Under the pieces are notes generated by a model. It worked only from the letters and a program-made list of their open reading frames with translations. It did not search any database and was not told where the DNA came from. Source: Actinomycetes bacterium (lineage in GTDB: Bacteria; Actinomycetota; Acidimicrobiia; Acidimicrobiales; JAKAVM01). From it: a DNA stretch of 59,898 nucleotides. The translations under genes and the position numbers were made by a program. The stretch spans positions 1 through 59,898 of the forward strand of contig JAKAVM010000058.1 in assembly GCA_021827485.1 (NCBI GenBank), in the 5' to 3' direction. Below are positions 2,927-25,804 of this stretch, one piece after another; the stretch's first letter is position 1, and each line of letters opens with the position of its first letter.

Positions 2927-3005
2927 TAAGATTTTCGACCTTCAAGACCTTACCTCGAAGTTGCTCGACGACAGATTACCCCAGTGTATAGAGATATCAG
3001 AAACC

Positions 3006-3630: not shown

Positions 3631-3692
3631 CATCTTGAAAACACGTCAAACACGTCTTGAGAACACATCTAAACACATCTTGAAGACACATC
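3631..3692. repeat. Degenerate acac(g/a)tc array between divergent genes
   Basis: Five copies of (a)acac[ga]tc interleaved with tcttga. Confidence 0.6.
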
Positions 3693-3731
3693 AGCTGTGA
3701 AACCAAGCGAAAAGCTCTATATAGTAGTGAC

Positions 3732-4406: not shown

Positions 4407-4492
4407 CTAAGAGGCCGAACGGAAAGCGCTGCGGAAGACGTCGCCCAGAATACGCAGCAGCTTAATACTCATGCTTGTTTCGCTTGTTGTGA

Positions 4493-5047: not shown

Positions 5048-5191
5048 TACACCCTTATTAAGCTAAGGCCTAAAATCGTCACAGAAGTCACTCGACTAGT
5101 ATATCGCTCACCCTAAGGCGAAACAAGCGATTTCTCACCTCTATCGCCGATTAACCGAATGCTGCTGGCGGTCTAAAACCCCTCGTCAACG

Positions 5192-6421: not shown

Positions 6422-6424
6422 AGG

Positions 6425-7694: not shown

Positions 7695-7913
7695 GATAAA
7701 CCAATTCTATATGTCTCACCCCTGCCAAGTTTACTCTTGTCCGTTGTGAATATTAGGGCAAAAAAGGATGAGTGAATAAAGGCGGATGTTGAACTAACCC
7801 AATGGGGATTTGCAATTGTTGAGTTTCAACAGGTGGCCAACTAAATTTCTTATCAAGAGGTAATTATGAGCTATGGTTGGTTACGGTGATAACGAAGATA
7901 ACAAGATGTCAGC

Positions 7914-10766
7914 TTGAGTTCACCATTGATATCAACAGACGACATGCCAGACAGGTGGGCCGTGGTTGACCCCTCCGCCTACCTTGGGCCGGAAAGCTGG
8001 GCCCGCCTGGAGATTGATCGGCAACTCGTTGCCTGTGGGTGGGTGGTCCAGAACCATCGGGAAATGGCCCTCGGCGCCGGGCTCGGGGTGGCGGTTCGGG
8101 AGTTCCCCATGGCCAAGGGCCACGGCACCTCCGACTACGTGCTTTTCGTCAACCGGAGAGCAGTCGGGGTCATTGAGGCGAAAAAAGTAGGCGAGACACT
8201 CACCGAGGTCGAGTGGCAGTCGGCCAAGTACGCCACGGGGCCGGCCGAGGACGTGCAGGCTCCGATGTCACCGCTCCCTTTTTGCTACGAATCGACGGGG
8301 GCTGAAACGAGGTTCACCAACCTGCTCGACCCCGAACCGGCGAGCCGGGAGGTCTTCAGCTTCCACCGACCTGAGACCTTTGCCAGCTGGTTGCGGGTCT
8401 GGGAGGACCTGAGCCTTGGCGGGCCCGACCGGGCGACGCTGCGCCAGTGCCTCCAGTCGATGCCGCCGCTGGATCACAGCAACCTGTGGGACGTTCAGTA
8501 CCAGGCGGTCGCCAACCTGGAGGAATCGCTGCGCTACAACCGGCCCCGTGCTCTCATTCAGATGGCGACCGGTTCGGGAAAGACCCACACCGCGGTTAGC
8601 GCCACCTACCGGCTCATCAAGCACGCTAAGGCGTCCCGGGTGCTCTTCCTGGTGGACCGGGCACACCTCGGCAAGCAGGCTCTGGCCGAATTCCAGTCCT
8701 TTGAGACTCCTGACGACCATCGCAAGTTCACGGAACTCTATGCCGCTGAGCGGTTAACCTCCAACACAATCGGCGATTCCTCAAAAGTAGTCATCACTAC
8801 AATTCAGCGCCTTTTCTCGATTCTAAAAGGCGAACCGGATCTTGACGAGGAGGTCGATGAGCGCACAGGGTTCGACGTCGAGCCAGCGGCCCCGGTCGAG
8901 GTATCCTATAACGATACAGTACCCCCGGAGTTTTTCGACGTAATCATCGTCGACGAGTGTCACCGCTCGATCTATGGGGTGTGGCGCCAAGTGCTCGACT
9001 ACTTCGACGCGTTCATCATCGGGCTGACCGCGACGCCGGGCAAGCAGACCATCGGCTTTTTCAACCAGAACTTTGTCATGGAGTACTCCCACGAGGCGGC
9101 TGTCGCCGATGGCATCAACGTGGACTTCGATGTCTACCGCATTCGTACCGAGATCACTGAGCATGGCTCAAAGGTGGATGCCGGACTCGTCACCAAGTTC
9201 CGCGCCCGTCAAACTCGTAAAACCCGTTACGAGAAAATCGACCAAGACATCGCCTACGCAGGTGCTGACCTCGACCGCTGGGTTGTCTCCAAGGACCAGA
9301 TCCGTACAATCATCCAGACATTCCGGGACAACCTCTTCACCGAGATCTTCCCCGGTAGGTCCTGGGTGCCCAAGACCCTCATCTTTGCAAAAGACGACTC
9401 CCACGCCGACGACATTGTCCAGATCGTGCGCGAAGAGTTCGGCTGGGGCAACGATCGCGCCGCCAAGATCACCTACAAGTCGCGCTCTGCAGGAGACAAT
9501 CCCGACCAGCTTCTCAAAGACTTCCAAACATCCCCTACGCTTCGGATCGCGGTAACCGTCGACATGATCGCCACCGGCACCGACGTGAAGCCTCTTGAAT
9601 GTGTCATGTTCATGCGAATGGTGCACTCCCGCAACTACTTCGAGCAGATGAAGGGGCGGGGAGTGCGGGTCATCGAGCCCAACGATTTGAAAGTCGTGAC
9701 CGGCGACGCCGAGGTGAAGGACCGCTTCGTCATCGTGGACGCCATTGGAGTCACCGAGGCGGACTTGCACGATACGGTGCCCCTGGAGCGAAAGCCTAGC
9801 GTATCCTTCGACAAGATGCTCCTTCGCCTGGTGCACGGGCGCTTCGACGAGGACACCGTTTCCTCGGTTGCCTCCCGCATCGCCCGGCTCGATCGTTCCA
9901 TCACGAGCGACGATCGTGCCGATCTGGAAAAGGTGGCGGGAGTCTCCCTGATCGAACTCTCCCACCTGCTACTCGACTCCCTGGACCCGGATCGACACGT
10001 GGAGGCCGCCCGGCAAGCAACGGGTCTGGCCGATCCGAGCGAGGCAGACGTGGCGGCAGCGGCCCAGTCGATCATCGAACTGGCAGTGCGCCCCATCGCC
10101 GACAACCCGCAACTGCGCCAGAAGCTGGTCGACGTACGGAAGTCCTACGAGCAGTTGATCGACGAGTTCTCCGCCGATCGAGTGATCTCCGCCGAGCTAT
10201 CGCGCGACGCCACGGACCGGGCGCGCTCCATCGTGACGTCCTGGCGGGCCTATATCGACGAACACAAGGACGAGATCACCGCGCTCCAGGTGCTCTATTC
10301 CCAGCCCCACAGACGCAGGCTCTCCTTCCCCGATATCAAGGAACTGGCGCACGCGATCAAACGGCCGCCGTATCGCTGGACGCCGGAGACTCTGTGGAAC
10401 GCTTATGAAACACTCGACAAGTCCAAGGTGCGCGGGTCGGGAAGCCGAGTGCTCACCGACATTGTGTCGCTGGTGCGTTTCGCACTCTCTCAGGACTCCA
10501 CGCTGGTCCCCTATACGGATCGGGTCGAAGAGAAATTCGCTGGCTGGCTTGCTCAACAGGCACAGGCCGGTCGTGTGTTCACACCGGACCAGGAGCGGTG
10601 GTTGCGGTGGATCGCCGAAGCCATCGCATCGTCGCTGACTGTCGATACCGACGCCTTCGAGTACGAGCCCTTCGTCCAGGACGGCGGAATCGGGCGGGCG
10701 GTGGAACTCTTCGGTGACGACTTGGGGCCGTTGCTGGACGAGCTGAACCGGGAGCTGGCGGCGTGA
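7914..10766 (+). CDS. hsdR: Type I restriction endonuclease subunit R (EcoEI/EcoAI-like)
   Basis: SDYVLF...VIEAKK nuclease motif, ATGSGKT, DECHRS, TATP, QMKGRG, and a C-terminal EcoEI_R_C-like region. Confidence 0.95.
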   Translation: MSSPLISTDDMPDRWAVVDPSAYLGPESWARLEIDRQLVACGWVVQNHREMALGAGLGVAVREFPMAKGHGTSDYVLFVNRRAVGVIEAKKVGETLTEVEWQSAKYATGPAEDVQAPMSPLPFCYESTGAETRFTNLLDPEPASREVFSFHRPETFASWLRVWEDLSLGGPDRATLRQCLQSMPPLDHSNLWDVQYQAVANLEESLRYNRPRALIQMATGSGKTHTAVSATYRLIKHAKASRVLFLVDRAHLGKQALAEFQSFETPDDHRKFTELYAAERLTSNTIGDSSKVVITTIQRLFSILKGEPDLDEEVDERTGFDVEPAAPVEVSYNDTVPPEFFDVIIVDECHRSIYGVWRQVLDYFDAFIIGLTATPGKQTIGFFNQNFVMEYSHEAAVADGINVDFDVYRIRTEITEHGSKVDAGLVTKFRARQTRKTRYEKIDQDIAYAGADLDRWVVSKDQIRTIIQTFRDNLFTEIFPGRSWVPKTLIFAKDDSHADDIVQIVREEFGWGNDRAAKITYKSRSAGDNPDQLLKDFQTSPTLRIAVTVDMIATGTDVKPLECVMFMRMVHSRNYFEQMKGRGVRVIEPNDLKVVTGDAEVKDRFVIVDAIGVTEADLHDTVPLERKPSVSFDKMLLRLVHGRFDEDTVSSVASRIARLDRSITSDDRADLEKVAGVSLIELSHLLLDSLDPDRHVEAARQATGLADPSEADVAAAAQSIIELAVRPIADNPQLRQKLVDVRKSYEQLIDEFSADRVISAELSRDATDRARSIVTSWRAYIDEHKDEITALQVLYSQPHRRRLSFPDIKELAHAIKRPPYRWTPETLWNAYETLDKSKVRGSGSRVLTDIVSLVRFALSQDSTLVPYTDRVEEKFAGWLAQQAQAGRVFTPDQERWLRWIAEAIASSLTVDTDAFEYEPFVQDGGIGRAVELFGDDLGPLLDELNRELAA

Positions 10767-12034
10767 GCGAGCTGCCGACGGGGTGGGTGGAGACGACAAT
10801 TGGTTCGGTCATTTCGCCTGCTGGGGAGAGGTCTACCCCGGGTGCTGATGATGCCCGACATTACATCGGGCTTGAACACATCGAGGCTCACACCACTCGA
10901 ATTCTCGGCTCGCAATTAGCGAGCCAGATTCGAAGCTCCGCTGTCAGCTTCCAAAAAGATAGCGTGCTTTACGGCAGAATGCGGCCATACCTAAACAAGG
11001 TGTGCCTCGCCCCGTTTGATGGGATCGGATCACCGGAGCTTATCGTTCTTCCACCCTCATTGGGGATCCGGCCGCGATTTCTCTTGTATCGGATAAGCCA
11101 CACCGATTTCGTCAGCTTTGCAATGAAGCACATCGAAGGTGACCGACCGCGGGTCAAGTGGAACCAACTTGCAGATTTTCCGATCGATTTGCCGCCGGTC
11201 GCCGAGCAGGACCGCATCGTCGCCGCCATCGAGGAGCAGTTCTCCCGGCTCGATGCTGCCGAGGCGTCGTTGCAAAGAGCGAAGCGGAATGTGGAGAGGA
11301 TGCGGAGGGCGGTGCTGGCGGAAGCCTTTCCGAGAGGAGACGAGCTGCCGACGGGGTGGGTGGAGACGACAATTGGTTCGGTCATTTCGCCTGCTGGGGA
11401 GAGGTCTACCCCGGGTGCTGATGATGCCCGACATTACATCGGGCTTGAACACATCGAGGCTCACACCACTCGAATTCTCGGCTCGCAATTAGCGAGCCAG
11501 ATTCGAAGCTCCGCTGTCAGCTTCCAAAAAGATAGCGTGCTTTACGGCAGAATGCGGCCATACCTAAACAAGGTGTGCCTCGCCCCGTTTGATGGGATCG
11601 GATCACCGGAGCTTATCGTTCTTCCACCCTCATTGGGGATCCGGCCGCGATTTCTCTTGTATCGGATAAGCCACACCGATTTCGTCAGCTTTGCAATGAA
11701 GCACATCGAAGGTGACCGACCGCGGGTCAAGTGGAACCAACTTGCAGATTTTCCGATCGATTTGCCGCCGGTCGCCGAGCAGGACCGCATCGTCGCCGCC
11801 ATCGAGGAGCAGTTCTCCATTCTCGATTCGCTCTTTGCCGCGATAGACCACTCGCTCGTCCGCTCCGCCCACCTACGCCGGGCGATCCTGGAGCAGGCGT
11901 TCACCGGCAGGCTCGTTCCCCAAAACCCGAGCGACGAGCCTGCCTCGGCCCTGCTTGAGAGAATAGAGCAGGTCAGGCGAGACAATCTGGCCGCATCGAA
12001 GACCAAGAAGGGTAAGGTGGCGACGCCACGATGA
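10763..12034 (+). CDS. hsdS: Type I RM specificity subunit with two identical TRDs
   Basis: LPTGW and LPPVAEQDRIV conserved regions, ILEQAFTGRLVPQNPSDEPASALL tail, GTGA overlap with hsdR. Confidence 0.95.
   Translation: MSELPTGWVETTIGSVISPAGERSTPGADDARHYIGLEHIEAHTTRILGSQLASQIRSSAVSFQKDSVLYGRMRPYLNKVCLAPFDGIGSPELIVLPPSLGIRPRFLLYRISHTDFVSFAMKHIEGDRPRVKWNQLADFPIDLPPVAEQDRIVAAIEEQFSRLDAAEASLQRAKRNVERMRRAVLAEAFPRGDELPTGWVETTIGSVISPAGERSTPGADDARHYIGLEHIEAHTTRILGSQLASQIRSSAVSFQKDSVLYGRMRPYLNKVCLAPFDGIGSPELIVLPPSLGIRPRFLLYRISHTDFVSFAMKHIEGDRPRVKWNQLADFPIDLPPVAEQDRIVAAIEEQFSILDSLFAAIDHSLVRSAHLRRAILEQAFTGRLVPQNPSDEPASALLERIEQVRRDNLAASKTKKGKVATPR
10768..11818 (+). repeat. ~478-bp apparently perfect direct repeat (10768-11245 / 11341-11818)
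   Basis: Same nucleotide and protein sequence for both TRDs, offset 573 bp. Confidence 0.95.
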
Positions 12035-12399
12035 CACTTCCTCACACACTTTACGAAGTCGTCGACGGTAGGACGCTCTATGCCGGTCGCACCGTGGCCC
12101 AATGGCTGCCCGATGTCATACAGCGAATTGTCGATCGCTTCTCACCCTTGAAAATTGTACTTTTTGGCTCGCTAGCCACAGGGACGGACACCGGCGAAAG
12201 CGACATTGATCTACTAATAGTTCTGAGGAAACTGAACGGTCGCCATCACGACGTGGCAGTTTCTATTCTGCGCGAACTGCGCGACATACCGGTTCCAATT
12301 GATCTGTTGGTCACTGACGAGGAGGAGATACAGCGGCGTGGCGATTTGCCCGGAATTCTCCGAGTCGCCCTTCGTGAAGGTTCAGTCGTCTATGGTTGA
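12031..12399 (+). CDS. Minimal nucleotidyltransferase (MNT family)
   Basis: LFGSLATG...SDIDLL and PIDLLV motifs; ATGA overlap with hsdS. Confidence 0.9.
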   Translation: MTLPHTLYEVVDGRTLYAGRTVAQWLPDVIQRIVDRFSPLKIVLFGSLATGTDTGESDIDLLIVLRKLNGRHHDVAVSILRELRDIPVPIDLLVTDEEEIQRRGDLPGILRVALREGSVVYG

Positions 12400-12511
12400 G
12401 AAAAGTGGAACCTTCGAAACAAAGCATAATCTTCTTCAACTCTCTCAATTGGTTACCCGTTTAGAGATCGTGGCACGATATATTGAACTTTCTAATACAG
12501 GAGGGCATTAA
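12392..12511 (+). pseudogene. Possible truncated HEPN remnant (39 aa)
   Basis: ATG overlaps the MNT end. MVEKSGTFETKHNLLQL resembles the HEPN (K/R)THdL..L motif. Confidence 0.3.
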
Positions 12512-12514
12512 GTT

Positions 12515-12901
12515 ATGACTACCCAACTAGAAACCAATCTTAACAATCGCGCATGGATATTCCAAGCCAATCCCCTACATTTCGACATCGATGACGCATT
12601 GAAGTCGCTGGATCGCATCTGGTGGCGAGTTCCTCAGCATACATTCCATATCCATGTTGGTGATATTGTCGTGATATGGAGAAGTGGAAAGGCTGCTGGA
12701 ATTGTCGGCATGGATCGAGTTGTTTCTGAACTACGGCTCAAGGCAATGGAGCCTTCCGAAATGGAGCTTGTCCGATCTGAGGCTAGCTATCGAGTCCGCA
12801 GCCAAGCTTGGCACCAAGGAAGTGAACAGGTCGTGATCCAGACGGAATCTGAAGAAAGTGGCACTTCGATGCAGGCAGCACCGGGTATTTGGCATGCGTG
12901 A
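12515..12901 (+). CDS. EVE (PUA-like) domain protein, probably truncated
   Basis: AWIFQANP..FDI, W.V......I..GD.V.IWRSG...GIVG..RV pattern; GGAGGG RBS. Confidence 0.7.
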   Translation: MTTQLETNLNNRAWIFQANPLHFDIDDALKSLDRIWWRVPQHTFHIHVGDIVVIWRSGKAAGIVGMDRVVSELRLKAMEPSEMELVRSEASYRVRSQAWHQGSEQVVIQTESEESGTSMQAAPGIWHA

Positions 12902-13817
12902 ATGGTCCCCCCATACCGAGGAGAAGATCTCGATCCTCGCCGACTACCTCGGTGAATTCACCGTGGCTGCCCGGACCGCGGTCAACCGGATTTACATGGA
13001 CCTGTTCGCCGGGGAAACCGTCAACATCTTGAAGACGACGGGTGAGCAGTTCCCCGGTTCAGCGGAGATTGCACGGGCTGTCGAGCCCCCTTTCACCTCG
13101 CTCATCCTCTTTGAGAAGGACCACCAACGCGCTACAGATCTCCGCACTCTTGCCCGTGACCACGGTGATAGCCGGGTCACCGTCGTCGAGGGCGACTGCA
13201 ATGCGAATATGCTTGCCGCTCTTCGGGCCGTTCCGACCCAGGCTCCGGTATTCGCCTTTGTCGATCCCGATGGCATGGAGGTCCAGTTCCGAACCATAGA
13301 GCTTCTCGCCGAGCACAAGCGAAACTCCGGTAAGCCCAAGATCGAGATGTGGGTTCTCCTTCCGACGAGCGGGCTGGTACGCATGCTCGGGGGGAATCGA
13401 AGCGAGGCCGAAAGGCAGGGTCATCCTGACAAGGTGGCCCGCCTCTACGGAGCATGGGGACCCTGGCAAGACGTGTGGGAGGCCCGCCTGGCGGGGACGC
13501 TGTCTCCTGGAGATGCGCGCCTGGCATACCTCCTCCTATACATGGACCGGCTTGCTGGCCTCGAATACACCTACCTGCTTGCGCGCCCGATCAAGAACTC
13601 CCGTGGCGAGCTGTACGTCATGGTCTTCGCTACCGATCATCCTGCCGGGCAGAGCATCATGCAATGGGCACAAGAGAAGGATCGGGTGGTGCGTCGTACT
13701 GCTACCCCACCTCTTTTTCAATACCCGGAGGCCCGTCCCGCTTACGAGGACATTCATACGGAGTGGCGCGAGCAATTCCCCGTTTCCCTGTCCGAATGGG
13801 TGGAGTACCAGTGGTGA
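12858..13817 (+). CDS. tcmP: Three-Cys-motif partner protein (Rossmann methyltransferase-like); likely start at internal MREW (12894)
   Basis: W..HT..K...L..YL, YMDLFAG, GDCN and FAFVDP.G motifs; adjacent to DUF5131. Confidence 0.85.
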   Translation: MALRCRQHRVFGMREWSPHTEEKISILADYLGEFTVAARTAVNRIYMDLFAGETVNILKTTGEQFPGSAEIARAVEPPFTSLILFEKDHQRATDLRTLARDHGDSRVTVVEGDCNANMLAALRAVPTQAPVFAFVDPDGMEVQFRTIELLAEHKRNSGKPKIEMWVLLPTSGLVRMLGGNRSEAERQGHPDKVARLYGAWGPWQDVWEARLAGTLSPGDARLAYLLLYMDRLAGLEYTYLLARPIKNSRGELYVMVFATDHPAGQSIMQWAQEKDRVVRRTATPPLFQYPEARPAYEDIHTEWREQFPVSLSEWVEYQW

Positions 13818-13847
13818 TCGAGCGACACACGACGAGAGGGTCCCTTC

Positions 13848-14615
13848 ATGGCTAAGAGCTCGATCGAGTGGACCGAGGCCACCTGGAATCCGACGACCGG
13901 CTGCGACCGCACGTCGCCGGGCTGCGACCGCTGCTACGCGCTGACGCTCGCTAAGCGACTCAAGGCGATGGGTCACGAGAAGTACCAGCGAGACGGCGAC
14001 CCTGCCACCAGCGGACCCGGCTTCGGCATTGCGCTACATCCCGAGACCCTGGGTATTCCCCAATCATGGGGCGCCCCGCGGGTCATCTTCGTCAATTCGA
14101 TGAGCGACCTTTTCCATCCAGAGGTTCCGCTGGCCTTCATTCGCGATGTGTTCGACGTGATGGAGGCGACCCCTCGGCACACATACCAGGTGCTCACCAA
14201 GCGTTCGAAGCGCCTCGCCCAGCTCGCCGATCAGCTCTCCTGGCCGGCAAACGTGTGGATGGGAGTGAGCGTCGAGAACCAGCGCTACGCCTTCCGGGCC
14301 GATCATCTTCGGGAGGTCCCGGCCGCGGTGCGATTCCTCTCGGTGGAACCGATGCTCGGTCCGGTGGTTCCCGATCTCTCCGGAATCGACTGGATGATTG
14401 TCGGTGGCGAGAGCGGTCCGGGAGCCAGGCCTGTGGAACCCGAGTGGGTGCGGAATCTCCGCGACCTGTGCGTCGGCGCGAACGTACCCTTTTTTTTCAA
14501 ACAATGGGGCGGAAGAACACCCAAGGCCGGTGGTAGGACTCTGGACGGGCGGACCTGGGACGAGTACCCGGAGCCGGAGGCCACGCAACGCCTGACCTGC
14601 GTTGGGGAAGGCTGA
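13848..14615 (+). CDS. DUF5131 / phage Gp37Gp68 family protein (radical-SAM-like three-Cys motif)
   Basis: IEWTEATWNPTTGCDRTSPGCDRCYA (Cx6CxxC), FVNSMSDLFH, LTKR, GGESG, FFKQWGG. Confidence 0.93.
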   Translation: MAKSSIEWTEATWNPTTGCDRTSPGCDRCYALTLAKRLKAMGHEKYQRDGDPATSGPGFGIALHPETLGIPQSWGAPRVIFVNSMSDLFHPEVPLAFIRDVFDVMEATPRHTYQVLTKRSKRLAQLADQLSWPANVWMGVSVENQRYAFRADHLREVPAAVRFLSVEPMLGPVVPDLSGIDWMIVGGESGPGARPVEPEWVRNLRDLCVGANVPFFFKQWGGRTPKAGGRTLDGRTWDEYPEPEATQRLTCVGEG

Positions 14616-14616
14616 G

Positions 14617-16089
14617 ATGACCGATCCCAAGGCGCTCGTCGCCAAGCTGTGGAACTACTGCAACATCTTGCGGGACGACGGTCTCTCCTACGGCGACTAC
14701 TTGGAGCAGCTCACCTACCTGCTCTTCCTGAAGATGGCCGACGAACAGACCCGTCCACCCTTCAGCCGGGAAGCGGTCGTCCCCTACGGCCTCGACTGGC
14801 AGTCTCTCAAGGACAGAAGCGGAGACGAACTCGAAGCGCACTACATCCGCATCCTAAACGAGTTGGGCAGGCAACCGGGGATGCTCGGTGTCATCTTCCG
14901 CAAAGCGCAGAACCGCATCCAGGACCCGGCGAAGCTCCGGCGCCTCGTCGTCGAGCTCATCGACCAGGAGTCGTGGATGACGCTGAAAGCCGACGTCAAG
15001 GGCGACGCGTACGAGGGGCTCCTACAGAAGAACGCCGAGGATACCAAGTCCGGTGCTGGCCAGTACTTCACTCCCCGCCCGCTCATCCACGCAATCGTCG
15101 AGGTGATGGCTCCGGTGGCGGGAATGAGGATCTGCGATCCGGCGTGCGGGACCGGTGGGTTCCTATTGGCCGCCCACGACTACATCGCCCAGCACAACCC
15201 CTACCTCAATCCCGATGAACGCAAGGAGCTGCGCTTCGAGGCGCTCCACGGGTGGGAGATCGTTGATAACACCGCCCGCCTGTGCGCGATGAACCTCCTT
15301 CTACACGGGATCGCGGCCGCCGATGCCGAGAGCCCCATCAGAGTAGATGACGCCATGAAGTCCGACCCTGGTGCACGCTACGACATGGTGCTAACTAATC
15401 CACCTTTTGGGAAAAAGTCCTCGGTAACCTTGGTTGGTGCCGACGGCGAATCCCGCAAGCAAGATCTGACCATCCTTCGGGATGACTTTTGGGCGACGAC
15501 ATCCAATAAGCAGCTCAACTTCCTTCAGCACGTACGGACGCTCACCAAAGTCGGTGGATCGGTAGCAATTGTCGTTCCCGATAATGTCCTTTTCGAGGGA
15601 GGCGCAGGTGAGACGATCCGGCGCAAGCTCCTCCATGAGTGCGACGTTCATACGCTGCTGCGGTTGCCGACCGGCGTGTTCTACGCCCAGGGGGTGAAGG
15701 CGAATGTCCTGTTCTTTGACCGTAAGGCTGCCTCGGAAACGCCGTGGACGAAGGAGTTGTGGATCTACGATCTGCGAACCAATCAGCACTTCACCCTGAA
15801 GGAGGATCCGTTGGGCTACGAGGACCTGGGGGACTTCATCAAGTGCTTTTCCGCTGGTGACCGGCCGAAGCGGGTCGAGTCCGATCGGTTCCACTGCTTT
15901 TCTATTGATGAACTCCTGGCACGAGACAAAGCAAGTCTGGATATCTTCTGGTTGAGGGACGAGTCACTGGAGGATGCCGACAACCTGCCAGCACCAGAGG
16001 TGATCGCCGCGGAAATCGTGGAGGACCTGGAGGCGGCGTTGGCGGAGTTTGCAGAAATCGCGGCGAACCTCGGGGCGCGGGAAGCGTGA
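14617..16089 (+). CDS. hsdM: Type I RM N6-adenine methyltransferase subunit M
   Basis: KLWNYCNILRDDG, GQYFTPR, DPACGTGGFL, NPPF. ATG at 14617 (track start 14602). Confidence 0.95.
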   Translation: MTDPKALVAKLWNYCNILRDDGLSYGDYLEQLTYLLFLKMADEQTRPPFSREAVVPYGLDWQSLKDRSGDELEAHYIRILNELGRQPGMLGVIFRKAQNRIQDPAKLRRLVVELIDQESWMTLKADVKGDAYEGLLQKNAEDTKSGAGQYFTPRPLIHAIVEVMAPVAGMRICDPACGTGGFLLAAHDYIAQHNPYLNPDERKELRFEALHGWEIVDNTARLCAMNLLLHGIAAADAESPIRVDDAMKSDPGARYDMVLTNPPFGKKSSVTLVGADGESRKQDLTILRDDFWATTSNKQLNFLQHVRTLTKVGGSVAIVVPDNVLFEGGAGETIRRKLLHECDVHTLLRLPTGVFYAQGVKANVLFFDRKAASETPWTKELWIYDLRTNQHFTLKEDPLGYEDLGDFIKCFSAGDRPKRVESDRFHCFSIDELLARDKASLDIFWLRDESLEDADNLPAPEVIAAEIVEDLEAALAEFAEIAANLGAREA

Positions 16090-16220
16090 AACCGCTGAGC
16101 CAGTCCCCTATTGCAATCACACAATTTAGGCTTGAAGAGGCTCTCCGGGGACGCCAACGAGCAGATGACGAAGCGAGAGTAGGACTTCACACGAATGAGA
16201 GGGAAGGCGGGTAGACAGCT

Positions 16221-17558
16221 ATGTTAAGCAAAGACCCAGCCACGTTGAGCCCTCGTGAGTTGTTTGACGGACGTTACAGGGTCGAGCGGCTACTGGGGAC
16301 AGGAGATCGCAAGGTAACCTACCTGGCAATCGACGAAAAACATGATCGTCAAGTAGCGCTGAGTGTTGTACGGCCAAATGCGCTTCCGCAAGATCCGGAT
16401 GGCACAGAGCGGGAAGCAAAGGTGCTTGGGCGGATCGGCAGCCACGACAACATCGTTTCGCTGTACGAATCCGAGATCGAGTCAATTCCCCAGTACATCG
16501 TGTTTGAGTATCTTGCAGGGGGGACCCTCGCCACCTTCCTGCGCCAGTCGTGTCCGCTCCCAGCGGAGACAATTTACCGCCTTGCACGCCAGGTATGTCG
16601 TGGATTGGCCCACCTACACGATAAGGGTGTTATTCACCGTGACCTTTCGCCTGCAAATATCTGGCTAGACGAGCGCGGGACTGCCCATCTGGGCGATTTC
16701 GATTCTGCCATCAGGCTCGGGGATAGCGACCAGCGGTGCCCCATAACCACGAATACCTTCGCCGCCCCAGAGGAGAAGAGCGGTGAAGCCTTAGATGTTC
16801 GCTCCGACTTGTTTTCCCTCGGCGGGCTCCTCTATGTACTGGCTATGGGCGGTGACCGACTTGGAGATGTCCGAGGGCTTCGGAGCCAGCGCACCGATCT
16901 ACCGTCATCTTTCTCTGACCTCGTTGAAGCGCTCGTGGCCTGGTCACCAACGGACCGCCCAGCCGATGCTAATGCAGTCTTGACGTGGCTTGAGCAGATT
17001 CGTAACGCTTCCAATCTCGGAAGCCTTCTCAAACAAGAGGAAAGCAATCACCTCGAGTTCAAAGCATCGCTCCTTCACCTGCACAGTCCTTTGCCAGAGG
17101 CGCTGAAGAAGAGGGTGGATAATGATACCTTGACGGTCGAGCAGGCACAAGGCGAAGCAAGGGGTGGAGTGAAGCGTGCCGCGGCCAAGACGATCTGCGC
17201 TTTCCTAAACAGCGAAGGTGGCACGCTCGTCATTGGAGTTACCGACGCTCGAGACGTTGTCGGCATCGAACCGGATTTTGCTTACTTGGGCGCGCGTCAG
17301 GATGCCGACGGGTGGCTCAACGAGTTCCAAATGTTAGTTAAAAGCACGTTGGGACCGGACACTTGGAGCTGCATCCGCGTTTCGCTTACACAGCATGAAG
17401 GTGCCACTGTCGCGCTCGTAGATTGTCCTCGGCGAGCCATCGACACATGGTTGACAATGGAGAAAAAGCAAGAGTTCTTTATCCGAGCTGCCAATGGAAC
17501 CGAAGCGTTAGAGGGACCGCGCCTCGTCAAGTATGTACGCGAGCACTGGATGTCATGA
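16221..17558 (+). CDS. Ser/Thr protein kinase fused to a Schlafen/AlbA_2 domain
   Basis: Kinase motifs HRDLSPAN, GDFD, APEE, SDLFSLG. C-terminal EESNHLEFKASL and ICAFLNSEGGTLVIGVTD. Confidence 0.88.
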   Translation: MLSKDPATLSPRELFDGRYRVERLLGTGDRKVTYLAIDEKHDRQVALSVVRPNALPQDPDGTEREAKVLGRIGSHDNIVSLYESEIESIPQYIVFEYLAGGTLATFLRQSCPLPAETIYRLARQVCRGLAHLHDKGVIHRDLSPANIWLDERGTAHLGDFDSAIRLGDSDQRCPITTNTFAAPEEKSGEALDVRSDLFSLGGLLYVLAMGGDRLGDVRGLRSQRTDLPSSFSDLVEALVAWSPTDRPADANAVLTWLEQIRNASNLGSLLKQEESNHLEFKASLLHLHSPLPEALKKRVDNDTLTVEQAQGEARGGVKRAAAKTICAFLNSEGGTLVIGVTDARDVVGIEPDFAYLGARQDADGWLNEFQMLVKSTLGPDTWSCIRVSLTQHEGATVALVDCPRRAIDTWLTMEKKQEFFIRAANGTEALEGPRLVKYVREHWMS

Positions 17559-17694
17559 TCAGCGATCGGCGAGTAAGAGGGGGATTGAAGGCCAAGCTCG
17601 GGCGCAACTTCCATCTGCTCATGGCATTGGCCACCTACGAGCGCATTCCCTTTGATGGCAAAGAGTTGTCACAGGTTGGAGGTACTCTTTCCTG

Positions 17695-18849
17695 ATGGCC
17701 GTATCTACGAGGGTTGAAGTAAAACCGGAGTTGCTGGCTTGGGCACGCGAGCGCTCTGGCCTCGACCCTAGCTACCTAGAACATCGTTTCCCGATGTTGA
17801 ACGACTGGAAACAAGGAAACCGTCAACCTACTCTCAAGCAATTGGAGGACTTTGCTCGCGCTACCCACACCCCTATCGGTTTCATGTTTCTATCAGAGCC
17901 ACCCGAAGAGCGCTTGCCGATTCCCGACTACCGCACGGTCGGTGATTTAGGTATTATCCGCCCCAGCCCAAACCTTTTGGACACTATCTTCCAATGCCAA
18001 CAACGTCAGGAGTGGTACAAAGAGTTCGCACAAGTTACGCGCGAAGATGCTGTCAGCCTAATTGGATCGCTAACGATGTCGATGCGCGTCAATGAAGCAG
18101 CTGACATAATAAGAGAGGCGCTTGGGTTCTCCATTAGTGAACGTGGTTCAACATGGACTGAAGCACTTCGAATCCTCATCGATCAAGCCGAGAAACTCGG
18201 GGTGCTAGTCATGGTTAGCGGAGTGGTAGGGAGTAATAACTATCGCAAGCTGGATCCTCGGGAGTTTCGTGGCTTTGCCCTCGTTGATCAACTTGCCCCA
18301 CTAGTGTTCATAAACGGTGCGGACACGAAGGCGGCTCAGATCTTTACCTTAACGCATGAACTTGTCCATCTCTTCCTGGGTGAAACAGCTCTTGATGACG
18401 TCGACCTTGCCTCAGCTCCCACGATCCCCACTGAACGCTGGTGCAATCAAGTAGCGGCCGAACTTCTCGTCCCGAAGGCGTTATTGGACACCGATTTCGA
18501 CGGAGAAACCCAACCCACAGAAGAACTCGAGCGCCTTGCAAGGAAATTCAAGGTGAGCACCCTCGTCCTTCTTCGTCGTGTCCATGACATCGGTCGCCTG
18601 GATTGGGATAGCTACAAGCAGGCTTATCGAGATGAGCTAGCGCGGATCCTGCAGATATTGGGCGAGCGACCATCAGGACGTGGAAACTTCTTCAATACTC
18701 AGCCTGCCCGGGTGAGTAAGCGCTTCGCCCGAGCCGTCATCACGAGTACTTTAGAGGGTCAGACCCTTCATCGCGATGCGTTTCAAATGTTGGGCTTCAA
18801 GAAACTTTCTACTTTCGAGGAGTTAGTTAGTCGGCTTGGTGCTGGCTAA
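17695..18849 (+). CDS. XRE-HTH + ImmA/IrrE (Peptidase_M78) metallopeptidase
   Basis: N-terminal LAWARERSG...PTLKQL HTH, FTLTHELVH (HExxH), ERWCNQVAAELL. Confidence 0.92.
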   Translation: MAVSTRVEVKPELLAWARERSGLDPSYLEHRFPMLNDWKQGNRQPTLKQLEDFARATHTPIGFMFLSEPPEERLPIPDYRTVGDLGIIRPSPNLLDTIFQCQQRQEWYKEFAQVTREDAVSLIGSLTMSMRVNEAADIIREALGFSISERGSTWTEALRILIDQAEKLGVLVMVSGVVGSNNYRKLDPREFRGFALVDQLAPLVFINGADTKAAQIFTLTHELVHLFLGETALDDVDLASAPTIPTERWCNQVAAELLVPKALLDTDFDGETQPTEELERLARKFKVSTLVLLRRVHDIGRLDWDSYKQAYRDELARILQILGERPSGRGNFFNTQPARVSKRFARAVITSTLEGQTLHRDAFQMLGFKKLSTFEELVSRLGAG

Positions 18850-19337
18850 TGGCGTATCTACTTGACACGAACGTCTTTATCGACGCTAAAAATCGCTATT
18901 ACGGATTCGATTTCTGTCCAGCTTTTTGGGAATGGATCGATCAAGCTCACGTCGACGGAATAGTGTTTAGTATCGACAAAGTAGCGAGTGAGCTAAATAT
19001 CATAGATGACGAACTCTCCACCTGGGCCAACCAACACACTAATGAGTTTTTTCTAGAGGCTGATGCCGCATTGATTCCGAGCCTTCGGATCACCAGCAAC
19101 TGGGCAAACGGTGCAGGCTATGAGCCTGCGGCAGTCGCTACTTTCCTCCAAGACGTCGATTATTACCTTGTAGCGCGTGCTCACGCACTTGGTTATGTAG
19201 TGGTCACCCACGAAGTAGTCTCGACCTCCAAGAAGAAGATAAAGATTCCCGACGCTTGCCTTGGCATCGGCGTGAGATATCTAACACCGTTTGAAATGCT
19301 TCGGATCGAAAGAGCTAGATTTGTCATCTCATCGTGA
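18849..19337 (+). CDS. DUF4411 family PIN-like protein
   Basis: YLLDTNVFI, YY.FD.CP.FW.W, VVTHE, KIKIPDAC; TAATG overlap with the upstream gene. Confidence 0.9.
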   Translation: MAYLLDTNVFIDAKNRYYGFDFCPAFWEWIDQAHVDGIVFSIDKVASELNIIDDELSTWANQHTNEFFLEADAALIPSLRITSNWANGAGYEPAAVATFLQDVDYYLVARAHALGYVVVTHEVVSTSKKKIKIPDACLGIGVRYLTPFEMLRIERARFVISS

Positions 19338-22192
19338 GATCCTCCGACGGATTACGGAATAGTGATGTCGCACCCTTCTGTTACCCTTCAAACATGAAAC
19401 ACTTTTTGAAGTTCGTTATGCGGCTGGTACTTATTGTGGCTTTAGGCATGCTCTTTCTCGTCCAAACCTTAGCCTCGCCTGTCTTTGGCGGCTCATATGG
19501 ACCAAAATCTTTGGTGGGGCAATCTGACCAATTAGCTAGAAATCACCTTGTAAGAATGGAACCCGCTCTTGCGCCCGATGCAAGGGTGGTGGGCGTACCG
19601 CCCATGATTAGGGTGGACATCACTTTGAAACTGTCTCATCCGGTTCAAGCAGCCCGCTTTGCCTACGAGGTATCGGATCCTAAATCATCACTTTTCCGTC
19701 ACTTTTTGGCCAAAGGACAGTTCAACCAAGATTTTGGACCAAGCCCAAGCGAAGTTCATCGTGTGCAAGGTGAGTTGGCTTCACTTGGACTTTCCACGTC
19801 AGTGCAGCCTGTCGGATATGTATTAGAAGCTTACGCTCCTACCAAGACAGTCGACGATGCTTTCCATACCAGGGTTGACAATTTTATGATGCCTGGTAAC
19901 AGAATTGCTCATTCAAATATATCGCCTGTGTACTTACCTTCTAACATATCGCCAGACGTTATGAATATAACGGGGCTCTCCGATGTATCCCAAGCGGTGC
20001 CGCAGGGTAATCTAAGTCCCTCCTTGAAGCAACCATATTCCAAGACTGGCAAGACTCGCTTAGCTACCGGAGGACCTCAACCTTGCCAAAGTGCAGTAAG
20101 CACGGGAGCACTAACTGCTGACCAGTTAGCTAGTGCTTATAGCTTCAGTGGAGCTTATCAAGCTGGCTATGAGGGCCAGGGAGAGACTATTGCTCTAGTT
20201 GAGTTAGGTTCTGGCTGGAATCCTAACGATATATACACTTATGAATCATGTTACGGGATCAACAATGACATCCACTACGTGGATGTAGACGGCGCGGACT
20301 ATGAAACCATGAACAGTGGAAGCTTTGAACCTACTCTGGACATAGAAGATGCAGTAAGTCTGGCCCCTCAGGCTAAGATCATTACCTATGAAACGCCAGA
20401 TCTTTCTATTCTATCGGAACAGGATGCCTTATCGGCTATTGCCTCAAATGATTCAAGTCAAATAGTAAGTATTAGCTATGGAGGCTGTGAAGATCCATAT
20501 GGCGACCAGTCCATCAACACAATCCTCGAACAGTTAGCATCTCAGGGAAATAGTATCTTTGCCGCCTCCGGCGACACCGGTGCAAACTGTTCCGACATAA
20601 CTAGTAACGGGACTACTTATAGTCTTGGGGTATCATTCCCTGCAAGTAGCCCCTACGTTACCGGCGTAGGTGGAACGCAAATGAGTTCAGTGGGACCACC
20701 ACCTGTCGAATCTACTTGGAATGATGGAACGGGCTCCAACGGGGTTATTGCCGCATCAGGAGGAGGCTGCTCTAAGGAATTTTACCAACCACAGTTTCAA
20801 GCTAACTATTTTGGCGATACCTATCCCAATAGCACATACTGTAGGGAAGTTCCCGATGTATCGGCACTTGCGGGTTCGCCCGGATATTCCGTGTACTACT
20901 CAGGGTCTTCAACTAATGGCACTATCGGTTGGCAGATCGGGGGAGGCACAAGCGCCGCGAGTCCCCTATGGGCGGCACTTCTTGCGGTTAGCAACTCAGA
21001 TTGCAATCGTGATTTTGGCCCTATCAATCCGTCAATTTACAAATACTCTTCGCAATACCTAAACGACGTAACCTCGGGAAACAATGGGTATTATTACGCC
21101 GGAGTTGGATATGACATGACGACAGGGCTTGGATCTCCCAATGGAAGTGCATTTATGTGCACTGTAGGAAGTCCAACGGCTACAACCACAACAACTTCGA
21201 CAACTTTGTCACCAACTACTACAACAACGACTACTTCAACTACGTCGCCGATCATCAACATACCAACGACTACTTCAACAACATTGTCACCAACTACTAC
21301 AACGGTGGCACCTACAACTACTCTCCCAGCGACAACAACCGCTGCCCCTCCACAAAATCCAGTCCCAAAGAACAACCAGCCTGGGTACTGGTTATTGGGC
21401 TCTGATGGAAGTGTCTATAGTTTTGGTTCTGCGAACTTTTATGGCTCAGCATCTGCATTGGGTCCGGCTAGCGCTATGGCTGCAACCGCCGATGGAGGGG
21501 GCTATTGGCTTGCATCTTCTAACGGTGCTGTCCAAGCTTTTGGGGATGCAATCGACTATCCTCTTAGCGCATTTCCAACAACTTCAGTTGTTGCAATTGC
21601 TTCCACCCGTGACGGCAACGGATTCTGGTTGGCAACTTCAGGAGGTCAAGTCATTGAAGCTGGAGATGCGCAAGCCTACGGTTCTCCTGCCCTACAAGGT
21701 ATTTCTCTCACCGCTCCCATTATCGCAATGGCTGTTACTAAGAGTGGAGATGGCTATTGGCTGGTAGCTGCTGATGGTGGGATATTTAGCTTTGGCAATG
21801 CAAGTTTTTATGGTTCATCTGGTCAAATCAATCCTGCATTTGCCGCCGGTGGGTCTAACTCCTTTGTGCCCAATAAGCCGATAATCGGAATTGTCGCTAC
21901 CGTTGATGGAGGCGGCTACTGGATGGTTGGAACTGATGGTGGGGTCTTTGCTTTTGGCGATGCAGGATTTGTTGGATCATCTGGCCAAATCAATCCGGCA
22001 CTTCCCGCTGGTGGGTCTAACTCCTTTGTCCCCAATAAACCAATAATCGGAATTGTTGCCAGCGCTGATGGAGGCGGCTACTGGATGGTTGGGGCTGATG
22101 GTGGAGTCTTTGCTTTTGGCGATGCAGGATTTGTTGGATCCCTTGGGAACAACCCACCGGCCAATCCAATTGTTGCAATCGTAGGCGACTAA
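19334..22192 (+). CDS. Secreted S53 (sedolisin/kumamolisin) peptidase with Thr-rich linker and C-terminal GYW-repeat domain (start probably ~19394)
   Basis: Pro-domain, EPTLDIED, ASGDTG, VPDVSA, GGTSAASP, YDMTTGLGSP; GYWLVAADGGIFSFG repeats. Confidence 0.9.
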   Translation: MRSSDGLRNSDVAPFCYPSNMKHFLKFVMRLVLIVALGMLFLVQTLASPVFGGSYGPKSLVGQSDQLARNHLVRMEPALAPDARVVGVPPMIRVDITLKLSHPVQAARFAYEVSDPKSSLFRHFLAKGQFNQDFGPSPSEVHRVQGELASLGLSTSVQPVGYVLEAYAPTKTVDDAFHTRVDNFMMPGNRIAHSNISPVYLPSNISPDVMNITGLSDVSQAVPQGNLSPSLKQPYSKTGKTRLATGGPQPCQSAVSTGALTADQLASAYSFSGAYQAGYEGQGETIALVELGSGWNPNDIYTYESCYGINNDIHYVDVDGADYETMNSGSFEPTLDIEDAVSLAPQAKIITYETPDLSILSEQDALSAIASNDSSQIVSISYGGCEDPYGDQSINTILEQLASQGNSIFAASGDTGANCSDITSNGTTYSLGVSFPASSPYVTGVGGTQMSSVGPPPVESTWNDGTGSNGVIAASGGGCSKEFYQPQFQANYFGDTYPNSTYCREVPDVSALAGSPGYSVYYSGSSTNGTIGWQIGGGTSAASPLWAALLAVSNSDCNRDFGPINPSIYKYSSQYLNDVTSGNNGYYYAGVGYDMTTGLGSPNGSAFMCTVGSPTATTTTTSTTLSPTTTTTTTSTTSPIINIPTTTSTTLSPTTTTVAPTTTLPATTTAAPPQNPVPKNNQPGYWLLGSDGSVYSFGSANFYGSASALGPASAMAATADGGGYWLASSNGAVQAFGDAIDYPLSAFPTTSVVAIASTRDGNGFWLATSGGQVIEAGDAQAYGSPALQGISLTAPIIAMAVTKSGDGYWLVAADGGIFSFGNASFYGSSGQINPAFAAGGSNSFVPNKPIIGIVATVDGGGYWMVGTDGGVFAFGDAGFVGSSGQINPALPAGGSNSFVPNKPIIGIVASADGGGYWMVGADGGVFAFGDAGFVGSLGNNPPANPIVAIVGD
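21812..22140 (+). repeat. 162-bp internal tandem duplication (54-aa repeat)
   Basis: GSSGQINPA..AGGSNSFVPNKPIIGIVA..DGGGYWMVG.DGGVFAFGDAGFV occurs twice. Confidence 0.85.
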
Positions 22193-22276
22193 CAACTTAT
22201 CGTAGACCGATAGCTATGAGGTAGAACGAATATAGTTTATCTTAGGACATCCGAGAGTGCCTGGTGAGAAATAGTC

Positions 22277-23134
22277 CTATTGAAGCAAGAACTGGAAGTT
22301 ATTACGAAGCCTCTCGATGTATGTTACGCAGATGACTTCGACGGTGTCGGCTTGCATGGCGGGAAACAGCGCACGCTGTGCCATGAGAACCCCACTACCT
22401 CCACGGCGGCCAAATAGCTCATCAAGATATTGAATCGCATTGCGAGTTGGCTCGCCGGCAATCTCGTTTTCAATGAGCATTGCGAATGTGGTCGCCATTT
22501 CTGACGGAATTGTTACTTGCATGAGACGAAGGACATCGGCAGCATCCTTGTCATTGAGCCGGTTGATTTTGTTGACGGCGACGCGGTCATGAATTTTGTG
22601 TGCCTTTGCGATCAAGAGTGCTGCGACTCCAGCGACATCCACCTCAATTGAACGCATATCCAAGGAATCGAGCGCTGCAATTATCATCGGCGATCTATCG
22701 ATGAGCGCTGCTTCGAGACCAGCAGCTTTGCGAGCGGCAGAGTTACCGTGGCCACCGAGCCGCACTCCTCTCCTACCACCCCTAGGTGCAAACCCGTCAG
22801 GAACTATCAAGTCGACAGGGACCATGACCCGTTGGCCATCAATATCGGCCGGAGCTTCCCAGATCCCCGGTTGATGACGATCTCCAAGTTTCAGAGAGAA
22901 GTTTGCTGATTTCATCGCCTCTTCGAGCTGTGGGAATTCGGAAAGTAACGATGGATTGATAACCAAGTCGCCATCGATAGTAAACGGCGCGATGGCAAGA
23001 TCAGAGTTACCACTACGTAGATATACAGCTTGGGCACCGCAAAGGATCACAGCACGGCCGTGAGGAGCAAGCGCAAATAGAGCATCGAGGAGTATTCGGC
23101 GCGCTGCGACGTATCGGGGATCAAACTCCATCAC
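22277..23134 (-). CDS. AbiEii-like nucleotidyltransferase toxin (type IV TA)
   Basis: LCGAQAVY...T.DGDL (G..A/DxD), AKAHK, KDAADV.RL. Confidence 0.75.
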   Translation of the reverse strand: MMEFDPRYVAARRILLDALFALAPHGRAVILCGAQAVYLRSGNSDLAIAPFTIDGDLVINPSLLSEFPQLEEAMKSANFSLKLGDRHQPGIWEAPADIDGQRVMVPVDLIVPDGFAPRGGRRGVRLGGHGNSAARKAAGLEAALIDRSPMIIAALDSLDMRSIEVDVAGVAALLIAKAHKIHDRVAVNKINRLNDKDAADVLRLMQVTIPSEMATTFAMLIENEIAGEPTRNAIQYLDELFGRRGGSGVLMAQRALFPAMQADTVEVICVTYIERLRNNFQFLLQ

Positions 23135-23185
23135 AACGCCCCAAGCGGGCTGAGGCTTGTATCGTCGAGGAAGTCACTTTATGAA

Positions 23186-24328: not shown

Positions 24329-24428
24329 GGCAATTTAGTATAACAGAAAAATATTGCCTGTAACTAGCCATTTGCTTTTATGACAAAACAGCTGATATAG
24401 GAAATCTTTTCTGCAGTACGTTTGGCCT

Positions 24429-25778: not shown

Positions 25779-25804
25779 TTTTACTCACTAACATCCAATT
25801 CTAG

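Follow-up and report, generated by a model that had tools for sequence, protein, structure and literature searches.

A Hanks kinase-Schlafen fusion in an acquired type I restriction island of an Actinomycetes bacterium: a candidate kinase-switched RNase of phage defence

The DNA analysed here (the window) is a stretch of 59,898 nucleotides, contig JAKAVM010000058.1 of the Actinomycetes bacterium assembly GCA_021827485.1 (Acidimicrobiales), and its subject of interest is the kinase-Schlafen gene P0001, which occupies positions 16221-17558 of the + strand (stop codon included) and encodes, from an ATG start, a protein of 445 amino acids. A first-pass annotation made from the sequence alone had described this gene as a kinase-Schlafen (AlbA_2) fusion directly downstream of hsdM. 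The fusion is real, as both domains exceed the curated cut-offs of Pfam, and the gene follows hsdM on the same strand after a gap of 131 bp. The two strings quoted in that annotation were found at residues 273-281 (EESNHLEFK) and at residues 327-342 (AFLNSEGGTLVIGVTD). The reported lack of transmembrane (TM) segments and of a signal peptide was borne out by a top Kyte-Doolittle 19-residue mean of 1.18, a polar N-terminus and the absence of a signal-peptide-like start. The protein is cytoplasmic, with the kinase at the N-terminus and the Schlafen/AlbA_2 domain at the C-terminus.

The Schlafen/AlbA_2 domain (about residues 265-445; 17013-17555, + strand) was recognised by Pfam, profile search and VIA-align. 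Pfam SLFN_AlbA_2 (PF04326) matched residues 292-430 with an E-value (E) of 1.3e-13 (51.9 bits against a gathering cut-off of 25.3). Two alignments were used, one of 121 sequences (A2) and one of the C-terminal 184 residues of 42 locus-derived sequences (A3). When a profile of the latter was searched against 177,635 distinct PDB sequences, the significant matches were SLFN chains only (SLFN11, SLFN8, SLFN12, SLFN5 and SLFN14, E from 3.5e-8 to 1.7e-5), followed by two bacterial AlbA_2-type chains at E 0.18 and 0.25. Since a whole-protein Foldseek search was swamped by kinases, the C-terminal domain was also folded and searched separately. Modelled alone it reached a predicted local distance difference test score (pLDDT) of 93.7, and in a VIA-align comparison with 48,161 chains the top seven matches were all of the Schlafen/AlbA_2 fold (Z of 13.5 for 3lmm, 11.8 for SAMD9, 9.9 for 2kyy, 9.2 and 8.6 for SLFN11, 9.0 for SLFN5 and 8.6 for SLFN12), with the eighth at only Z 5.1. 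Foldseek on the domain model agreed with a Schlafen fold.

The E-x4-EFK motif pointed out by the first-pass annotation is present and intact as E274-x4-E279-x-K281 (17040-17063, + strand), and these three residues are invariant in both alignments. D342 (17244-17246, + strand; A3 position 81), in the segment GG-x-L-x-IGV-x-D, supplies the third acidic position of the Schlafen site; it is invariant in A3, conserved to at least 90% in A2, and aligns with the Asp pair of the 'IGVDD' strand of SLFN11. Residues of the E274/E279/D342 type are the catalytic residues of SLFN13 and SLFN11. Consistent with such a role are the PDB entry title 'SLFN11 E209A' and the dead mutant E17Q/D22N of the Schlafen protein CbCash (PMC13462974). 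According to the Fig. 1a legend of a recent survey, Ex4(E/D)xK is the signature of prokaryotic Schlafens (PMC13056530). Given that E274, E279, K281 and D342 are conserved, the nuclease site of the Schlafen half looks intact. An equivalence between the invariant S283 and the SLFN11 phosphosite S219 was also considered and was rejected, the alignment register being off by one residue.

The N-terminal half is a Hanks-type Ser/Thr kinase domain (about residues 14-262; 16260-17006, + strand), as judged from Pfam, PknB/Stk1 profile matches and Foldseek. Pfam Pkinase (PF00069) covered residues 19-215 with E 1.8e-35 (123.1 bits against a gathering cut-off of 31.7), the kinase profile matched PknB/Stk1 chains over residues 9-263 with E of about 1e-37, and the top Foldseek matches for the full model were PknB, Stk1 and SIK3, with a template-modelling score to the target of 0.74-0.82 for PknB. 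Family conservation placed the catalytic loop at H139-R140-D141-L-S143-P-A-N146 (HRDxSPxN; 16635-16658, + strand), where S143 stands in the position of the Lys that Ser/Thr kinases usually have in HRDxK. It also placed the DFG motif at D159-F-D161 (DFD), followed by the activation-loop residues P174, T176 and T177 and by A182-P-E184 (16695-16772, + strand). Invariant in the 121 sequences are D159, F160, D161, P174, P183 and E184, with T176 and T177 conserved to at least 90%. The family has kept HRD, N146, the metal-binding D159 and APE, and has Asp for the Gly of DFG. The conserved P174-x-T176-T177 lies in the activation loop, the usual place of activating autophosphorylation in RD kinases, and autophosphorylation of T176/T177 may be the activating step in this family.

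At the canonical beta3 (VAIK) lysine position there is a serine: HMMER pairs the 'VALS' of the family with the 'VAIK' of S. aureus PknB, and S48 (16362-16364, + strand) stands opposite the Lys. The candidate for a relocated catalytic lysine is K31 (16311-16313), which lies in the glycine loop G26-T-G28-D-R30-K31-V-T-Y (16296-16322, + strand). In the 121 sequences R30 never varies and K31 is kept in at least 90%, and DSSP of the full-length model gives a strand, beta2, at residues 31-38 with K31 at its start. The layout was followed into more divergent members with 19 sequences, P0001 and 18 cluster representatives at 50% identity that extend down to 32% identity with P0001. The beta3 position was never Lys (0/17 representatives covering it), the glycine-loop lysine was present in all 15 representatives covering the loop, and DFD was retained in 19 of 19. 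The housekeeping kinase of the same genome has VAVK, HRDVKPAN and DFG, and kinases of the same clade with other C-terminal regions show the same atypical marks as the family. Such tight conservation of an unusual lysine layout indicates selection on what would be a working nucleotide site, catalytic or not.

Five of the kinases in this lysine-relocated clade (L109:532-2340, L117:1463-3292, L115:1056-3227, L013:168-2060 and L111:2-1756; 44-48% identical) carry, in place of the Schlafen domain, a C-terminal region of about 330-450 residues without an assigned domain. L107 and L011 have a second kinase-like domain within the same clade.

K31 would replace the beta3 lysine in a WNK-like layout, a candidate assignment and a parallel at the level of sequence. 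In WNK1 a beta2 lysine substitutes for the beta3 lysine and the kinase is active; like the WNK kinases, the present family lacks the beta3 lysine and has a candidate replacement in beta2 and the glycine loop (G-x-G-x-x-K) (PMC4718504). There is, however, no specific sequence relationship to the WNK kinases: the best matches are of the PknB/Stk1 type, and the family has DFD and HRDxS.

An AlphaFold2 model of the full-length protein, computed from A2, reached a pLDDT of 92.9 and a predicted template-modelling score (pTM) of 0.88. Given this pTM, the relative placement of the kinase and Schlafen domains can be taken as confidently predicted, which speaks for one rigid body over two loosely tethered domains. 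A homodimer prediction for the full protein (A2, two copies) scored 0.00 and was used neither for nor against any reading. The arrangement resembles that of IRE1 and RNase L, in which a kinase-fold domain at the N-terminus is joined rigidly to an RNase at the C-terminus; RNase L has an antiviral function, with a kinase domain that binds nucleotide but is inactive (PMC4718504). The RNase in these proteins is a HEPN-type KEN domain (PMC3710099) and not a Schlafen domain, and any likeness is convergent; activation driven by dimerisation, as in IRE1 and RNase L, would for the kinase-Schlafen protein be an assumption by analogy. Human SLFN11 shares both the nuclease fold (Z 8.6-9.2) and the motif, and is described as an active dimer under phosphorylation control (PMC13462974). 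It differs in having two AlbA_2 lobes and a helicase and in being phosphorylated by separate enzymes, whereas here the kinase is in the same chain.

A word-indexed protein search with the kinase-Schlafen protein retrieved 1147 proteins at E<=1e-3, and both domains were present in all of the best 120 of these (425-549 residues), showing that the fusion is not a chance artefact. Among these 120 the closest was 82% identical, the next 61% and the others 50-57%. When one genome each for 185,579 species was scanned, only 30 loci were obtained, all in metagenome-assembled genomes (MAGs); their labels were mostly Actinomycetota or its families, with one Dormibacteria MAG, and eight were weak kinase-only matches from Acidobacteriota-type MAGs. 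A metagenome scan confirmed 149 relatives, 80 of which were kept, and a scan of viral contigs gave no close relative, the best match being 30% identical and confined to the kinase domain. The proteins form a large family, mostly in uncultured Actinomycetota, with both halves conserved. Only one of 40 genomes related to that of the window, a member of the same order, has the gene, and genomes of the same genus and the same family are without it.

The Schlafen domain itself is found behind many other modules. A Schlafen-domain profile gave 321 matches at E<=1e-30 among 1.84 billion cluster representatives, and among the best 150 of these were 64 longer proteins, 17 of them kinase-Schlafen fusions. 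Other N-terminal partners in the 64 were SBP_bac_3 (13), GmrSD_N/DUF262 (5) and Methylase_S (2), and further TIR, Roc-COR, AAA, DUF4420, Eco57I-type methylase, BrxL ATPase, trypsin and others. Such C-terminal Schlafen domains behind varied modules match the 'one effector, many front ends' pattern that prokaryotic Schlafens are known to show.

In the 2026 survey of Perez Taboada et al. (Nat Microbiol 2026, PMC13056530), 55 domain compositions were reported among 5,930 prokaryotic Schlafen proteins. The compositions in its Supplementary Table 2 (pSlfn1-55) include no Hanks/Ser-Thr kinase, with 0 occurrences of 'pkinase', 'PF00069' or 'STK', and the 'His_Kinase_A' of that table is a GHKL ATPase (PMC13056530). 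A literature search gave no paper pairing AlbA_2 with Pkinase and none describing a Schlafen-kinase fusion. The first-pass annotation had seen here the best candidate for an undescribed system, and this agrees with the absence of the fusion from the 55 tabulated compositions and from the literature searched: as far as the search reached, the architecture is undescribed. With the pSlfn proteins, as the survey presents them, the family shares a single AlbA_2/Schlafen domain with Ex4(E/D)xK, a second domain thought to sense or regulate, and a defence-island site. It differs in the Hanks kinase, the C-terminal position of the Schlafen domain and, in most members, a partner gene for a membrane protein of the Cation_efflux (CDF) family, and also in being nearly confined to uncultured Actinomycetota, which the complete RefSeq genomes of the survey do not sample.

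Prokaryotic Schlafens fused to varied partner domains are, by two recent accounts, demonstrated anti-phage tRNases (PMC13056530; PMC13462974). Two tested pSlfn members protect E. coli, and in one of them recognition of a phage tail-assembly chaperone leads to tRNA cleavage (PMC13056530). CbCash, a CRISPR-associated Schlafen-Csx15 protein, is a tRNase triggered by cyclic tetra-adenylate (cA4), in which mutants of the catalytic acidic pair lose toxicity and activity is supported by Mn2+ or Mg2+ (Nat Commun 2026, PMC13462974). The two would be alike in that a Schlafen tRNase stays inactive until a signal reaches the nucleotide-binding domain fused to it; the difference is that the switch of CbCash is a cA4-binding Rossmann-like domain that acts via filaments, and the one proposed here is a protein kinase domain (PMC13462974). 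No CRISPR genes were found among the 23 window open reading frames (ORFs) scanned (1-8200 and 7914-26392).

Our preferred reading, which we hold to be about evenly balanced between right and wrong, is that the protein is an autonomous, single-polypeptide, kinase-switched Schlafen RNase in phage defence and as such a new architecture within prokaryotic Schlafen immunity. The effector would be the C-terminal Schlafen domain, acting as a metal-dependent RNase whose most likely substrate is tRNA and whose cuts would halt translation. The N-terminal atypical Hanks kinase, with its catalytic lysine putatively shifted from beta3 to the glycine loop, would be the built-in switch. Nucleotide binding and/or phosphorylation of T176/T177 would change conformation or oligomeric state, and this change would turn the nuclease on or off upon infection. 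The roles of switch and effector are assigned in this way because of the apparently intact nuclease site, the precedent of characterised pSlfn proteins, the modelled rigidity of the two-domain unit, and the conservation of the nucleotide site and of the Thr-Thr pair. The logic may be likened to that of the kinase-RNase fusions IRE1 and RNase L and to the phospho-regulation of human SLFN11.

The roles might also be reversed, the Schlafen/AlbA_2 domain sensing phage DNA or RNA and the kinase being the effector, in the manner of Stk2-type defence kinases, which phosphorylate host or phage proteins. AlbA_2 domains do bind nucleic acid, as in the SAMD9 domain crystallised with DNA (7ksp, Z 11.8), and SLFN11 binds single-stranded DNA (PMC13462974). 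The C-terminal modules that replace Schlafen in the same kinase clade could be alternative sensors. The kinase half also matches defence-kinase models of PADLOC/NCBIfam, namely mad6 (3e-47), PD-T4-6 (1.2e-41) and PglW (1.7e-22). Against this, the family keeps all three acidic residues of the nuclease site and the motif Lys invariant or nearly so, which a pure binding domain would not need, and in characterised pSlfn proteins it is the Schlafen domain that acts as effector (PMC13056530; PMC13462974). We consider the reversed arrangement unlikely.

An assignment to Mad6 of the MADS system is not supported. The NCBIfam MADS6 model gave 139.1 bits and did not reach its equivalog cut-off of 460. 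Among the 14 island ORFs (7914-25778) scanned with PADLOC, neither mad7 nor mad8 was found, only a mad2-like (hsdM) and a mad6-like match, and the MADS MacSyFinder model, as given in the bioRxiv paper, requires MAD6-8. The PADLOC match to PD-T4-6 covers residues 12-208 only.

The relation of the gene to its type I neighbours was examined by comparison with L001, the locus of the only close relative (82% protein identity). DNA homology (blastn, 79% over 1450 bp) is limited to positions 16203-17649 (+ strand), that is, to the gene with 18 bp upstream and about 90 bp downstream, and excludes hsdM. At L001 the neighbours are small ORFs without assignment, a peptide deformylase and a ribulose-phosphate epimerase, with no restriction-modification (RM) genes. 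Given that the shared DNA is limited to the gene and the contexts are unrelated, the kinase-Schlafen gene appears to move as a one-gene cassette, and the window copy would have travelled in this form and landed behind hsdM in an acquired type I island.

The first-pass annotation had suggested a PrrC-like back-up to the neighbouring RM system. PrrC, encoded in the prr type Ic locus of E. coli, is an anticodon nuclease that guards a type I RM system and combines an ABC-ATPase-like N-domain with a nuclease domain of its own. In an equivalent arrangement HsdRMS would hold the kinase-Schlafen protein inactive, and a phage anti-restriction protein would release a suicidal tRNase. As with PrrC, mentioned as a tRNA-Lys nuclease in PMC13462974, a putative tRNase gene is embedded in a type I hsd locus, here between hsdM and an M78 gene. 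The 131-bp gap after hsdM, on the same strand, contains neither a promoter-like nor a terminator-like site (a scan of 15800-17900 found no promoter-like site and, where 1.8 were expected, 2 terminator-like sites). The order hsdM-kinase-M78 is as assembled: among the DNA contigs of four runs, one spans 14703-19800 without differences and no joint skips the kinase-Schlafen gene, and a contig from a second study spans 16053-16608 and bridges the same hsdM-kinase junction. At one further locus, L091, a type I hsdR ends 50 bp upstream of the homologue, which is followed by DUF4268/PDC-S11, a resolvase and an ArdC-M78 protein. McrB/McrC lies upstream in 8 of the 53 loci having at least 300 bp of upstream sequence, and Schlafen-GHKL proteins with a winged helix-turn-helix domain, another architecture, have been called back-up suicidal effectors inside BREX loci (PMC12839542).

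These points are outweighed by the distribution of the family. The cassette shared with L001 leaves out hsdM at one end and stops shortly after the stop codon at the other, in a context without RM genes. Among the 62 homologous loci that reach the C-terminus, L091 is the only one with an adjacent type I gene. When the HsdR, HsdS and HsdM proteins of the window were used in tblastn none was found in 110 homologous loci, an insensitive search that missed the divergent L091 HsdR later found by Pfam, and an equally insensitive search of related loci with the M78, DUF4411 and other island proteins found none except TcmP and DUF5131 in L092. The conserved partner is a CDF gene rather than an hsd gene, and the protein is without the ABC-ATPase and nuclease domains of PrrC, only Pkinase and SLFN_AlbA_2 having been found. 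The back-up role is not supported, and we regard such a guard as improbable. As to the neighbourhoods of the same architecture, which the annotation had named as a check, defence and mobile neighbours were indeed common, and a conserved pairing with hsd genes was not seen. The link to type I RM looks like one of co-location as defence-island cargo, not that of a dedicated guard.

The surroundings of the homologues vary. Besides McrB/McrC, defence neighbours include AbiJ (L067), AbiLi/AbiLii (L060), GmrSD (L079), an MTES_1575 helicase-nuclease (L006), a BrxH/DrmD-like SNF2 helicase (L056), NACHT (L099), TIR-Schlafen (L102), PIN domains and PDC-S11. Neighbours of the mobile-element type are phage-type integrases in at least 8 loci, several transposases, relaxases, a group II intron and a pSAM2-type replication protein. 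At L092 (11804-13293) a DUF5131-TcmP pair directly follows the kinase-Schlafen homologue, which sits on a pSAM2-type integrative element, and the DUF5131 protein is 71% identical to that of the window.

Among full architectures, the Schlafen domain closest to that of the family belongs to a TIR-Schlafen fusion (P0123, E 1.4e-78). The TIR-Schlafen copy at L102:2163-2981 adjoins a kinase-Schlafen gene with its CDF partner.

The CDF partner was counted in the 49 loci with at least 700 bp of downstream sequence, a CDF gene being scored when it lay within 700 bp on the same strand. Of the 49, 42 had a short gene of the Cation_efflux (CDF) family directly downstream (for example L003:2684-3352, L004:11385-12077 and L012:2631-3287, each on the same strand as the kinase-Schlafen gene), one had it in convergent orientation and six lacked it (L001, L056, L058, L090, L091 and L092). 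These counts are not independent, given that some loci from different assemblies are near-identical (L045/L046, L067/L068, L056/L058, L081/L083, L076/L077 and L003/L066). Most of the CDF proteins have 208-254 residues, which corresponds to the membrane domain without the usual cytoplasmic tail, and they keep the acidic motifs of TM2 and TM5. A DxxxD/DxxxD pair is typical of Mn-type CDFs. When 333 neighbouring ORFs were clustered, the next largest clusters after CDF covered at most 7 loci. As nothing but CDF is conserved around the homologues, the kinase-Schlafen and CDF genes form in the main clade a two-gene cassette in changing contexts. PADLOC has no model matching the CDF protein, and the pair may be an undescribed two-gene module.

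In a quick maximum-likelihood IQ-TREE phylogeny of 47 sequences, the window protein and that of L001 are a fully supported pair on a long branch, outside a 39-row clade that contains 28 of the 29 CDF-linked rows. The remaining members without a CDF gene (L010+L090, L092 and L091) likewise branch deeply. In the genome of the window, which is 92% complete, tblastn at E 1e-3 found no CDF homologue.

The pairing raises the alternative of a non-immune function, in which a kinase of regulatory function, carrying a domain that binds RNA or DNA or processes RNA, would control ion or metal homeostasis jointly with the CDF exporter, the window copy being an island-borne orphan. The position of the CDF gene and the retained acidic motifs fit such a role. 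So does the finding that WNK kinases, with which the relocated lysine would be shared, are ion sensors that regulate ion transporters (PMC4718504), as does the survey figure of 30.4% of pSlfn genes not associated with known defence genes (PMC13056530). On the other side, the genome of the window does without a CDF homologue, the CDF-less lineages occur in RM, integrative-element and integrase contexts, and the surroundings of the two-gene cassette change from locus to locus, with many defence and mobile-element genes. Genomes of the same genus and family lack the gene, and all this is what one expects of defence cargo in the accessory genome rather than of a regulator with a housekeeping role. 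Presence in one of 40 related genomes, the high-GC (guanine plus cytosine) island, the one-gene cassette and the defence and mobile neighbours likewise support an accessory gene. A homeostatic role seems to us quite unlikely.

Several of these observations weigh against the kinase-switched defence RNase that we prefer. With a CDF partner in 42 of 49 loci, most members of the family are not single-gene, and the pairing could point to ion homeostasis rather than defence. A share of the pSlfn genes in the survey lies away from defence genes, and ordinary metabolic genes are neighbours at many homologous loci. The matches to mad6 and PD-T4-6 concern the kinase only and are no better than those to PknB-type kinases (1e-37), and PADLOC has no model for the Schlafen half. 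Without the beta3 Lys, the HRDxK Lys and the Gly of DFG, the kinase could be a pseudokinase that merely binds nucleotide, and K31 is placed in the active site, as a candidate, by sequence register and DSSP. The function of the family is what we infer from sequence, models and analogy, and this holds for the RNase and kinase activities, the RNA target, the trigger, the direction in which the switch works and a phenotype in defence.

A more speculative extension would bring the CDF protein into the switch. A kinase-gated Schlafen RNase, independent of RNase L and IRE1 but like them in logic, would use its WNK-like kinase to sense a change in ions or nucleotides brought about by infection. In the main clade the truncated CDF would be a third, membrane component that sets or reports a Mn2+ or other metal signal for kinase and nuclease, the window copy being a streamlined one-gene version. 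We put this forward as a conjecture that is unlikely to hold.

The island in which the window copy lies begins with hsdR (7914-10766) and hsdS (10763-12034) and continues with two insertions in the hsd operon, the genes for an MNT-like nucleotidyltransferase (12031-12399) and for a protein with an EVE domain (12515-12901); all four are on the + strand and were assigned from Pfam, PADLOC and NCBIfam. No HEPN partner for the nucleotidyltransferase was identified. TcmP (TIGR04474; 12858-13817, + strand) and DUF5131 (13848-14615, + strand), between hsdS and hsdM, are the PDC-M41A/B pair of PADLOC, and hsdM itself (14602-16089, + strand) was recognised by N6_Mtase (1.5e-65), HsdM_N and PADLOC MTase_I (1.9e-192). 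Downstream of the kinase-Schlafen gene and outside the shared cassette, an M78/ImmA-like gene (17695-18849, + strand; RmrA-like in PADLOC) and DUF4411 (18849-19337, + strand) form an overlapping pair. The defence-island setting was thereby confirmed, with type I RM, TcmP/DUF5131 (PDC-M41), MNT and M78-DUF4411 all within 10 kb. The GC content of 8-18 kb is 58-63% (51% in the 12-13 kb bin) compared with about 47% in the flanks, and on this ground the whole restriction island is taken as horizontally acquired, packed with guest genes. The left flank is ordinary (low-molecular-weight phosphatase, fructosamine kinase, MFS transporter), and neither a tRNA gene nor an integrase was found at the island borders.

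The M78/ImmA-like and DUF4411 pair has a GC content of 51-54%, between the island and host values. It is followed by an ORF of 952 amino acids (19334-22192) that overlaps the DUF4411 stop by 4 bp and in which a pro-kumamolisin activation domain (residues 92-217) is the only one recognised, leaving about 730 residues without assignment.

Bacterial Schlafen tRNases have only recently been shown to be immune effectors, and the activating switch is known for very few of their partner domains. If the proposed reading is correct, a eukaryote-like kinase built into the chain would be a Schlafen switch of a new type, and the protein would offer a one-chain bacterial model for the phosphorylation control of human SLFN11-type nucleases. 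In addition, the family offers many natural examples of kinases, other than the WNK kinases, in which the catalytic lysine is putatively relocated, and its frequent pairing with a truncated metal transporter makes a two-gene module. As defence-finder models recognise the kinase half only, the family is likely mis-filed as a generic kinase.

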